Source: Anaerolineae bacterium (lineage in GTDB: Bacteria; Chloroflexota; Anaerolineae; B4-G1; SLSP01). Taken from it: a stretch of DNA of 53,357 nucleotides. This document shows positions 7,223 through 48,535 of the stretch, one piece after another (positions within the stretch are counted from its first letter, which is position 1; the number at the start of each line of letters is the position of its first letter). The notes beneath the pieces are model-generated. The model did not search any database. It was not told where the DNA came from and saw only the letters and a program-made list of their open reading frames with translations. Location: the NCBI GenBank assembly GCA_016931315.1, contig JAFGFB010000091.1, forward strand, positions 1-53,357. Reading direction: 5' to 3'. The translations under genes and the position numbers were made by a program.

Positions 7223-7386
7223 GGGGTGCGTTTCATTTCGGGGATGGAAATTTCAGGTGCCTCTATGAGGCGCATAAGAATATGGATTTTTCGCGGCGCG
7301 GCGAAGCCGCGCCGCGAAAAATCCATAAAAGAAAAGGCATTTGGGCGATAGCGATCTTGTTTTTGCTCCACAGTTGGAATGCACCC
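7223..7386 (-). repeat. Full-length copy A of the hairpin-centred, TIR-bounded intergenic element (opposite orientation to the 17945 copy)
   Basis: The ends GGGGTGCGTTTCA (7223-) and TTGGAATGCACCC (-7386) are inverted repeats. The central perfect palindrome at 7282-7326 has 21-nt arms and a GAA loop. A second hairpin lies at 7257-7273. It aligns end to end with the reverse complement of 17945-18118. Confidence 0.75.
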
Positions 7387-8042: not shown

Positions 8043-8133
8043 TGTTTTGGGGCGCGCTCCGTGCGCCCCAAAACAGTAATAAAAGATCCTCTTAGCCTGT
8101 TTGCAAAACCGCGCTTCATTTTTCCTGATGATC
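8043..8133 (-). repeat. Short derivative of the hairpin repeat family (hairpin plus 'CCTCTT..GTTTGCA' tail)
   Basis: 13-bp stem TGTTTTGGGGCGC (8043-8055) pairs with GCGCCCCAAAACA (8063-8075). The tail 'AAAAGATCCTCTTAGCCTGTTTGCAAAACC..GATGATC' aligns with the tails at 36520-, 37631- and 48495-. Confidence 0.6.
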
Positions 8134-17753: not shown

Positions 17754-17783
17754 CCAGAAAGGATTTGCGGGGTTTTTGATGGG

Positions 17784-17817
17784 GAGGTCCGGTTCTTTTT
17801 CCGGGCCTCTCTCTTTA
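17784..17817 (+). terminator. Possible terminator after the PDO gene
   Basis: 9-bp stem GAGGTCCGG pairs with CCGGGCCTC (one G.U pair) around an 8-nt loop, followed by TCTCTTT. Confidence 0.4.
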
Positions 17818-17944
17818 GCCCCTTCCCGTCGGTTGGGCAAGCGTTAGGAAGACCGGGCATGTTTATCCGACCCAACCCGGTTTGAGTCAGGCAAGCGCGC
17901 TGCATCTGGTATGAAGTGTTCTGTAGCCGATAGTCTGTCCCATA

Positions 17945-18118
17945 CCCGGTGGGTGCGTTTCAACTTGGGGGAAAAAGCAAGCCGATTATCATGCAAATGC
18001 CTTTCTTTGAGTGATTTTTAGCAGCGGGGCAAAGCCCCGCTGCTAAAAATCACCTTTTTATGCGCCCCGTAGGGGCGCTTGAGATTGTCGCCCCAGATTT
18101 GGAACGCACCCTACCCGG
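17945..18118 (+). repeat. Full-length copy B (used as reference) of the hairpin-centred, TIR-bounded intergenic element
   Basis: TIRs are CCCGGTGGGTGCGTTTCAA (17945-) and TTGGAACGCACCCTACCCGG (-18118). The central palindrome at 18011-18053 has 20-nt arms and an AAA loop. A second hairpin GCGCCCC-GTA-GGGGCGC lies at 18062-18078. Confidence 0.8.
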
Positions 18119-18223
18119 TCGCAGACTTGCTTTTCTTGGCAGTTGGGGTGAAAATAGACCTTAAAGACTGCTCATTGCTGAGATGGAATTAGCATTCTCA
18201 TAAGTTCATACAGGAGGACGAAA

Positions 18224-21571: not shown

Positions 21572-21700
21572 GGGAGGACGTTTCAACTCCGGGGTAAAGT
21601 AAAGGCGGCTATCCTGTAAATACTTGCCCTTGGTTGATTTTTCGCGGCGGGGTTTTGCCCCGCCGCGAAAAATCAACCATCTTCGAAACGCGCCCGCTAC
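21572..21700 (+). repeat. Copy D of the hairpin element (short form lacking the second hairpin)
   Basis: Left end GGGAGGACGTTTCAACTCCGGGG, right end TTCGAAACGCGCCCGCTAC. The central palindrome at 21631-21679 has 22-nt arms and a TTTTG loop. Confidence 0.7.
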
Positions 21701-25009: not shown

Positions 25010-25096
25010 GGGCTAAAGCCCGCTATAAGGAGTGTTTTTGGCTGACGCGCTCGCGTGTCAGCCAAAAACACTCTCTAAAATCGCGGCTTTAGCCGC
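25010..25096 (-). repeat. Variant member of the hairpin repeat family
   Basis: Mini hairpin GGGC-TAAA-GCCC (25010-25021). Long hairpin at 25030-25073 with 17 perfect bp, GAGTGTTTTTGGCTGAC pairing with GTCAGCCAAAAACACTC. Mini hairpin GCGGC-TTTA-GCCGC at 25083-25096. Confidence 0.6.
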
Positions 25097-36430: not shown

Positions 36431-36574
36431 GGGGTGCTTCATAACCACTATAACATACCTATCTGGCTTGGCCTGATAAGGAGTATTTGTGGGACGCGCG
36501 AAGCGCGTCCCACAAATACAGAAAAGGCCCTCTTCGTTTGTTCGCACGACCTGTTCTGGTTTCCCCGAATGATC
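36431..36574 (-). repeat. Copy E of the hairpin repeat family (intermediate form)
   Basis: The left end GGGGTGCTTCATAACC resembles the end of copy A. The palindrome at 36483-36519 has 17-nt arms and a GAA loop. The tail 'AGAAAAGGCCCTCTTCGTTTGTTCGCA..GAATGATC' aligns with the tails at 8076- and 37631-. Confidence 0.6.
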
Positions 36575-37584: not shown

Positions 37585-37675
37585 ATGTGTTTGGATACGG
37601 CGTCGTACCCGACGCCGTATCCAAACACATAAAAAAGATCCTCTTTGTCTGTTTGCAGAACCTCTCCCAGTTTCC
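37585..37675 (-). repeat. Short derivative of the hairpin repeat family
   Basis: Perfect palindrome at 37585-37630 with 21-nt arms (ATGTGTTTGGATACGGCGTCG) and a TACC loop. The tail is 'AAAAAAGATCCTCTTTGTCTGTTTGCAGAACC'. Confidence 0.65.
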
Positions 37676-43023: not shown

Positions 43024-43124
43024 AATCTCACCCGGCTTGTTGGCTTATCAGGGGCATTCAAACCCCCATTACCTCTACATTATAGCACAATTTGGCTCGT
43101 TGCGACGACGCGTATATGGGATCT

Positions 43125-43296
43125 ACCCCCGGAGGCGTTTCAGTTTTGGGGCAAAAGCAAGATGACTAGCATGCAAATACCTTCTCTTTGATTGATTTTT
43201 GTGATGGGGCTTTGCCCCATCACAAAAATCAATTTTCTCCTGCGTCCCGTAGGGACGCCTGAGATTTTTACCCCATTTTACTAAGAAACCACCGCC
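43125..43296 (+). repeat. Full-length copy C of the hairpin-centred element
   Basis: It aligns with 17945-18118 along its whole length. The palindrome at 43191-43233 has 20-nt arms and a TTT loop. The second hairpin GCGTCCC-GTA-GGGACGC lies at 43242-43258. An extra end-like motif TTGAAACGCACCCGCTACCCCC occurs at 43379-43400. Confidence 0.75.
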
Positions 43297-43483
43297 TGGA
43301 CTGGACTGGGTTAAGACCGAATTGCACGCTGATGGCGGTTTCTGGTAGAACCCACCATGTCACCAGCGTGGTGGGGTGTTGAAACGCACCCGCTACCCCC
43401 TTGCAATTTTGCGTTTCATCCAGAGCGTGGTATGATGGTTGCGCGGTTAGAGACCTTGAATCTCGGAAGCCGCGGAAGAAGGT

Positions 43484-48453: not shown

Positions 48454-48535
48454 GGTGTTTTTGCGGCGGCGTTACGCGCCGCCGCAAAAACACCGACCCA
48501 TCATTCGTCCTCTTAGCGTGCTTGAAGTGCTGCTG
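48454..48535 (-). repeat. Short derivative of the hairpin repeat family
   Basis: The palindrome at 48454-48494 has 18-nt arms (GGTGTTTTTGCGGCGGCG) and a TTACG loop. The tail '..TCGTCCTCTTAGCGTGCTTGAAG' matches the CCTCTTAG tail at 8085-. Confidence 0.6.

Follow-up and report, generated by a model that had tools for sequence, protein, structure and literature searches.

The four hairpin-bearing repeats of the 53,357-nt stretch of Anaerolineae DNA analysed here (the window) are identified as copies of a non-autonomous, non-coding MITE of about 162 nt, based on size, TIRs, target-site duplications (TSDs), copy number and patchy presence taken together. These are probably MITE copies in which the pairing of the central hairpin is kept mainly by templated correction and not by pair-by-pair selection. 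The patterns in the sequences indicate that the compensatory changes of this hairpin most likely arise when one arm is copied off the other. The host range of the element is a narrow group of uncultured Anaerolineae. The sequence family was previously undescribed, while its kind (a bacterial MITE) is already known, as is the process proposed for its core.

Full-length copies of the element are 160–163 nt in length and thus, as the MITE class demands, shorter than about 300 bp and non-coding. Specific ORFs of at least 80 aa were not found among the copies. TIRs of 13–20 nt (GGGTGCGTTTCAA / TTGAAACGCACCC) were present at both copy ends in the TIR search and the boundary determination, and the profile's own reverse-strand self-match supports them. 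Alignment of the four window sites delimited a common unit by the inverted repeats GGGTGCGTTTCAAcTTgGGGG ... CCCCnnnTTTGAAACGCACCC; the TIR pair of the copies can be written as GGGTGCGTTTCAAcTTtGGGG ... CCCCnnTTTGAAACGCACCC. In addition to the TIRs, a copy comprises a central perfect palindrome of 20–22 bp with a 3-nt loop and a second hairpin of 7 bp. The outer part of the palindrome, (T)GATTTTT/AAAAATC(A), is fixed, and the inner 10–11 GC-rich pairs are variable. All central hairpins of the window have perfect arms of 20–22 bp each and share the outer part GATTTTT/AAAAATC. The coordinates of the copies and their parts are summarised in Table 1.

Table 1 Positions of the MITE copies, their parts and the second repeat family (window coordinates unless a locus is named)
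Feature	Position	Strand	Length	Details
MITE copy A	7224..7386	-	163 nt	full length, inverted orientation
Copy A, second hairpin	7257-7273			
Copy A, central palindrome	7281-7327			22-bp arms; loop GAA on + strand, TTC normalised
MITE copy B	17951..18111	+	161 nt	full length; nhmmer matches, TIR search, boundaries
Copy B, left TSD	17943..17950		8 bp	TACCCGGT; sequence, TSD test
Copy B, right TSD	18112..18119		8 bp	TACCCGGT; sequence, TSD test
Copy B, central perfect palindrome	18011..18053		43 nt	arms 18011-18030 and 18034-18053, loop AAA
Copy B, second hairpin	18062..18078	+		GCGCCCC-GTA-GGGGCGC
MITE copy D	21574..21695	+	122 nt	second hairpin deleted
Copy D, central palindrome	21631-21679			22-bp arms; apical T.G or 5-nt loop
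MITE copy C	43131..43391	+	261 nt	
Copy C, central palindrome	43191-43233			loop TTT
Copy C, second hairpin	43242-43258			
Copy C, flanking repeat	43123-43130 and 43393-43400			CTACCCCC; latter offset by 1 nt
Second repeat family, window	8043-8110, 36483-36551, 37585-37662, 48454-48535, 25030-25073			
Second repeat family, elsewhere	L127 1090-1150; L204 15560-15625			

Copy B carries the TIRs GGGTGCGTTTCAACTTGGGGG (left) and CCCCAGATTTGGAACGCACCC (right), and the element as a whole has a folding energy of -91.7 kcal/mol (z = -9.0). Its palindrome reads GTGATTTTTAGCAGCGGGGC-AAA-GCCCCGCTGCTAAAAATCAC, with an arm made up of the outer part GTGATTTTT, common to the copies, and the copy-specific inner part AGCAGCGGGGC. 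As DNA, the palindrome alone folds at -34.9 kcal/mol (z = -10.5). Copy A has no recognisable TSD and copy D has none. In copy C, about 100 nt of unrelated extra sequence (~43276-43378) lie between the element body and the right TIR.

The hairpins were first noticed by a first-pass annotation, made from the letters alone, and all stems that it quoted are present in the window, exactly and at the positions given. The pattern ATTTTT-N16-40-AAAAAT occurs four times (7286, 18014, 21637 and 43195), compared to an expected 0.12. Perfect hairpins of at least 11 bp gave 28 matches, of which about 15 are distinct, against 0 in 20 shuffles. Pattern count, exact stems and hairpin excess over the shuffles together indicate that the observation is real and not a product of chance. 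The annotation had also taken the hairpins for 'independent copies' without placing them in a unit with TIRs and TSDs, and the MITE context changes what these copies are.

At least 20 copies of the element are known from four assemblies or metagenome sets. The 53 kb of the window contain four, a related MAG contains three and the metagenome contigs about 13. Among the 115 loci listed for a loose pattern applied to genome contigs, three were real (L029, L051 and L052, all from one Anaerolineae MAG) and the rest were AT-rich chance matches. A TIR-like word at position 833 of L052 was rejected as a chance match inside a coding ORF. The tighter pattern applied to metagenome contigs, in which neither inner stem nor second hairpin was specified, yielded the ~13 further copies from sludge, sediment and other metagenomes. 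A pattern scan of viral contigs revealed no family member, and 13 kb of extra sequence of the related MAG held no additional copy. In L130 (285-540), two MITE copies stand back to back, 8 nt apart, with the right end CCGGCTTT followed by the next left end.

Target-site duplications were evaluated in 14 full copies whose ends had been defined by the TIRs. Five of the 14 stand between exact direct repeats of 7–9 nt (B, 8; C, 8; L121, 9; L132, 8; L149a, 7), and L051 (7/8) and L029 (6/7) between near-exact ones, while the longest match among 182 mismatched left/right flank pairings was 6. These duplications indicate that the copies were inserted by a transposase making staggered cuts of 8–9 bp. 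A TSD of this length presumably fits enzymes of the IS6, ISL3, IS256/ISKra4, IS66 or IS1595 type, and the TIR shape GG-N4-GTT-N-CAA may resemble the ends of IS6/IS26. A cognate transposase was not found in the window or in the related-MAG sequence examined. The sole transposase met (L204 15701-17434, 577 aa, in the related MAG) is a faint DDE_Tnp_1 match, and its ends are unrelated to those of the MITE. Its gene is bounded by the inverted repeats CATTCGCTGAAAT and directly follows a hairpin element of the second repeat family.

Copy B lies in the spacer between the gene of a PDO-type disulfide oxidoreductase and trxB, so that the MITE insertion split a functionally coupled gene pair. The spacer measures 470 nt here (window 17754-18223), compared to 220 nt (L198 9781-10000) or 93 nt (L202 9632-9724) in relatives, and was widened by the insertion plus other extra sequence. 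The relatives compared at this locus have TrxB identities of 94% (L201), 87% (L198/L199) and 77% (L202/L203); their syntenic regions lack a copy and are too diverged to reveal a single unduplicated 8-mer. In the source run, which contains 95% of the window, Logan contigs end at the copies, as does the trxB Logan contig, and word depth over the element is high. The undescribed family breaks assemblies of these Anaerolineae genomes.

The claim that pairing-preserving double changes mark both hairpins was examined with 17 copies alignable over both, of which the window supplied four and other assemblies 13. The copies compared are paralogues from several organisms. The sample is small, with 20 linked hairpins, 13 of which were obtained via a pattern fixing GATTTTT, AAAAATC, TG and YTGARATT. 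Over both helices, standard pairs make up 98.4% of the 438 pair cells, compared to 91.9 ± 0.6% after shuffling, and 12 pairs are changed on both sides, compared to 3.3 ± 1.3; neither value was reached in any of 500 shuffles. When the 3' partner was shifted by 1–3 columns, pairing fell to 46–51%. RNAalifold independently predicted the same two helices. The double changes are thus far above chance, and the many unpaired stem positions named beforehand as the contrary outcome in a larger alignment were looked for among the 17 copies and are absent.

The central helix is paired in 98.7% of its cells. Its 19 pairs comprise ten with two-sided changes, none with one-sided changes and nine that are invariant, seven of the latter being fixed by the search pattern; this distribution was not reached in any of 500 shuffles. 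GATTTTT/AAAAATC was also present in all six copies that were found without that constraint. The 20 linked hairpins contain 14 different inner stems, and 16 hairpins are fully Watson-Crick. Pairing is imperfect in D (apical T.G), in L134 (a 1-nt deletion in one arm) and in L156 and L135 (two mismatches apiece). A further, decayed copy is known only as a loose end in reads. Most inner stems differ from the consensus GGCGGCGGGGC by 1–3 paired substitutions and form a graded series that tracks the subfamilies based on the flanks.

The first-pass annotation preferred selection on RNA or ssDNA structure as the cause of this pattern and offered regeneration of both arms from one template as the alternative. 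For the central hairpin, structural selection is not the best fit and the alternative is favoured, given the lack of one-sided variants, the fast arms, the flipping loop and the perfect palindromes of truncated copies. RNA stems under selection normally pass via wobble states. No such intermediates were observed in the central helix: C-G and U-A stand at 11:5 at one pair, G-C and A-U at 14:3 at another, and U.G or G.U at zero. Pairwise diversity of the inner arms (0.21/0.20) equals that of the TIRs (0.22–0.24) and of the unpaired spacers (0.21–0.28), indicating that stem evolution is not slowed, with the unpaired parts serving as a neutral yardstick that may itself be constrained. The central loop reached 0.59. 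The two features expected of a structured RNA, G.U intermediates and slower stems, are accordingly not seen in the central helix.

The loops occur as reverse-complement pairs, namely AAA (nine copies) and TTT (six, with D counted), and TTC (two) and GAA (two). On a tree built from the non-hairpin columns, at least five changes of loop orientation are required, including flips within the sister pairs B/L130 (support 95) and C/L121 (support 88). Outside the palindrome, B and L130 share 94% identity, and their differences fall almost entirely at the element termini or in the flanks; within the element, one or two terminal positions differ. The palindromes of the two copies are distinguished by one A-T to C-G pair and by the inverted loop. 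A third state, C-G with loop AAA, was present in an RNA-run contig from another run. Three simultaneous transversions are implausible as a path of point mutations, whereas an inversion is a single event.

Perfect palindromes are also kept in copies that are 5'-truncated or internally deleted. The left half is missing in L127, L131, L147 and L129, and the second hairpin in D, L029 and L149b; none of the seven is able to transpose any longer. Concerted change reaches beyond the GATTTTT core: next to it, copy A has G-C where L143 has A-T, and L129 has T6/A6 in place of T5/A5. The three extra pairs of D, whose right-hand bases are absent from the family consensus, are a weak further indication of such change.

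Template-switch mutations are predicted to extend stems, invert loops and produce compensatory change (PMC8794818; PMC5453318). The corresponding footprints (loop inversion at kept length, mirrored multi-base changes and stem extension; PMC8794818) were all found in the central hairpin. By this template-switch or quasi-palindrome correction, a point mutation would appear in one arm, after which the nascent strand would switch template inside the palindrome during replication or repair, either within the strand or across the fork. One arm, often together with the loop, would then be re-copied off the other. The mutation would thereby be erased or transferred to both arms, and the loop might end inverted.

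Among the loci compared, no orthologous locus carried both loop states, and the data from paralogues fit change in situ and change in master-copy lineages alike. Run contigs matched at 80% likeness break within the palindrome, which leaves the arms unlinked. Template switching alone does not account for the invariant outer GATTTTT/AAAAATC; this invariant T5/A5 stem base indicates some added sequence constraint. An origin of the stem sequence from the target site was ruled out, as the stems are unrelated to the TSDs. Active and rapid renewal of the palindrome by hairpin-templated copying, tied to the life cycle of the element or to a host activity, appears rather unlikely. The link to the life cycle might be a single-stranded or hairpin transposition intermediate, for example, and a host activity would recognise the fixed T5/A5 base. 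If such renewal occurred, the loop would flip-flop near a 1:1 equilibrium even at one locus in a population, and the family would be a natural multi-copy readout of long-stem 'compensatory' evolution without selection.

Selection for a perfect DNA hairpin would be another way to obtain stems of this kind. Such a hairpin, single-stranded or cruciform, might be needed for transposition, so that only perfect master copies are mobilised; a transposase or host factor would bind the fixed T5/A5 base and need an uninterrupted stem, new insertions would be perfect, and stem diversity would reflect compensatory evolution within master lineages. We regard this as possible, if unlikely. The invariant outer and free inner stem resemble a recognition site with a structural spacer, some copies are decayed (L135, L156, L134 and the loose-end copy) and G.T pairs are absent, as DNA would predict; selection for a perfect DNA hairpin would likewise remove G.T pairs, which counts against templated correction. 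However, copies without a TIR or with half the element missing, and 12–25% different elsewhere, still have perfect palindromes, and the stems evolve no slower than their flanks. A solo hairpin of the same type without TIR arms exists at L149 1284-1325. The repeated loop inversions would also need a separate cause, and that cause, template switching, would by itself account for the compensation. A quite improbable explanation is selection on RNA structure, with the co-transcribed hairpin acting as a stabiliser against 3'-exonucleases, a terminator or an RNase III site, as known MITEs do (PMC3733652). Copies are indeed embedded between different flanks in many metatranscriptome contigs of a second study. 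In the runs of the source study, coverage of the region is thin and even. These RNA contigs are undirected, of low depth and may include DNA, so that the varied flanks point either to co-transcription with neighbours or to DNA in the libraries, and they gave no indication of a discrete RNA from the element. One RNA contig of run X2 that covers the left half of an element copy ends in an Illumina adapter at window 18036, just past the palindrome centre; this single record could mark where a fragment, or reverse transcription, ended at the hairpin. A T-rich tract follows the central hairpin in the + orientation of the element, and a terminator scan flagged the hairpin of copy B with the tail CTTTTTAT on the + strand. 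A bidirectional terminator was ruled out, since on either strand the GC stem has the T run on its 5' side and the A run on its 3' side; T5 and A5 pair with each other. The closing pair of the second hairpin, U.G in 10 of the 17 copies, fits pairing on one strand only and favours an RNA. In contrast, there is not one G.U in ~320 central-helix cells despite the common C-G/U-A exchange, the loop switches strand identity freely and truncated copies are perfect in arbitrary contexts. The orientation relative to neighbouring genes is inconsistent, with two of four copies downstream of a co-oriented gene and two in divergent promoter regions. Rfam holds no family for the element; within the window only tRNA reaches the gathering score, and around copy B only sub-threshold miRNA-like hairpin matches were obtained. 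Readings as an IHF site or a sigma-70 promoter found no match in a scan and on inspection by eye.

Two further explanations treat the stems as imported or as artefacts. An exchange of cassettes, in which GATTTTT-stem-AAAAATC is a REP-like module and ready-made stems are swapped into the MITE, is very improbable. It would agree with the stem of the solo hairpin in L149, which matches that of L129 (a MITE copy) almost exactly, with a second repeat family of like design in the window (GTGTTTTT plus a variable GC stem) and with the chimaera of both families in L127. It would, however, leave loops unflipped and does not predict a graded series of stems along the flank-based subfamilies, and neither a RAYT-type gene nor a GTAG tag was seen in the sequence examined. 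Misassembly at perfect palindromes as the source of the loop flips, with the compensation being mere subfamily structure from few masters, is extremely improbable. De Bruijn graphs cannot orient a loop if k is smaller than one arm plus loop, and several contigs have only 0.5–3x coverage. Yet both orientations occur within one assembly (AAA in B, TTT in C and TTC in A of the window), and the CGCAGCGGGGC stem was seen in both orientations in independent runs. The B loop recurs in an independent k=31 contig (X4 record 18), 31 nt corresponding to flank base, arm and loop. An artefact is thus unlikely, because k-mers of at least 31 tie the loop to a unique flank in addition to these recurrences, and it would leave the double substitutions unaddressed.

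The second hairpin behaves differently from the central one. Its seven pairs are 97.5% paired and its pairwise diversity is 0.126; no other part of the element that the search pattern left free is as conserved. The double changes claimed for it at pair 4 in C and at pair 6 in A were confirmed, but the G.T wobble attributed to A exists only on the non-normalised strand and is C.A when normalised. C has its double change in common with L121, and A with L143, a related copy in either case, so that two inherited events are involved; both lie among variants with wobbles or mismatches. One-sided variation affects three pairs, the closing pair among them (U.G in 10 copies, C-G in 6). Measured against the expectations for a structured RNA, the result is mixed, with two double changes and three one-sided ones. 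The second hairpin is compatible with mild constraint on one strand and offers weak evidence of structural selection; it shows no sign of the templated-correction process.

The genome is rich in long perfect hairpins: the 53 kb contain about 15 distinct examples of 11 bp or more, and the shuffles none. In syntenic DNA of the 87% relative, a single hairpin with a stem of at least 12 bp was found in 21 kb. Members of the second repeat family consist of GTGTTT(TT), a copy-specific, GC-rich perfect stem of 13–21 bp and AAAACAC, usually followed by the tail AAAAGAyCCTCTTnGnCTGTTTGCAnAACC, and the stem is different in every copy. In L127, a repeat of this family is fused to a 5'-truncated MITE copy. 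Solo hairpins without MITE arms, of the GATTTTT-stem-AAAAATC or T6-stem-A6 type, are located at L149 1284-1325 and L130 170-210. The former differs from L129 in its loop (GAA instead of GTA) and lies between two MITE copies within 450 nt. Degenerate versions of the design of T run, GC stem and A run are present at L198 13430-13470 and 13570-13640, in the syntenic DNA of the 87% relative.

Stem covariation is routinely read as proof of functional RNA structure. The MITE family is a clear bacterial counter-example, with compensated stems and loop inversions without wobbles that point to templated DNA copying. Since templated copying would act here in near-neutral repeats, R-scape or CMfinder screens on metagenome repeat families could mis-call palindromes as RNAs. 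The family is also a possible natural system for the study of templated stem evolution.

Among known systems, the element is similar to bacterial MITEs such as Correia/NEMIS of Neisseria, RUP, ERIC/YPAL, Nezha and bcr1 (PMC3184786, PMC10969869), which are small and non-coding, have TIRs, TSDs, many intergenic copies and a strong fold, and are present or absent between relatives. Hairpin-folding bacterial MITEs are likewise co-transcribed with neighbours (PMC3733652). The long, perfect and hypervariable palindrome core with a fixed T5/A5 base and a flipping loop distinguishes the element from described bacterial MITEs. REP/BIME sequences with their RAYT transposases share with it abundant extragenic GC-rich palindromes, conserved structure, variable stems and mosaics, but REPs carry a GTAG or CGTC tag, lack TIRs and TSDs and are associated with RAYT (PMC3733652), none of which was seen in the MITE. 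Its palindrome is flanked by TGATTTTT, and TSDs are present. Integron attC sites have conserved outer inverted core sites and an inner part that is variable yet symmetric, and are recognised as a folded single strand. An attC stem is imperfect and contains extrahelical bases by which the strand is marked; the sites occur in cassette arrays beside an integrase. The MITE differs from attC in its perfect stems and in being a transposon unit with TIRs and TSDs.

The minute inversions associated with hairpins in chloroplast spacers (for example trnH-psbA; PMC2903610) resemble the loop changes, as short loops flip repeatedly and homoplasiously there, even among close relatives. These are single-copy organellar loci, whereas the MITE loops flip among paralogous transposon copies. 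For the core, the likeness is to template-switch mutagenesis (Ripley model; E. coli and yeast assays, PMC3820800), in which one event copies an arm and perfects an imperfect palindrome, and to its footprints in RNA genes (PMC8794818) and the human genome (PMC5453318), which comprise multi-base compensatory changes, loop inversion and stem extension. In contrast to the assayed systems, the process proposed here is deduced from a multi-copy mobile element of an uncultured bacterium, in which near-neutral copies can be compared side by side.
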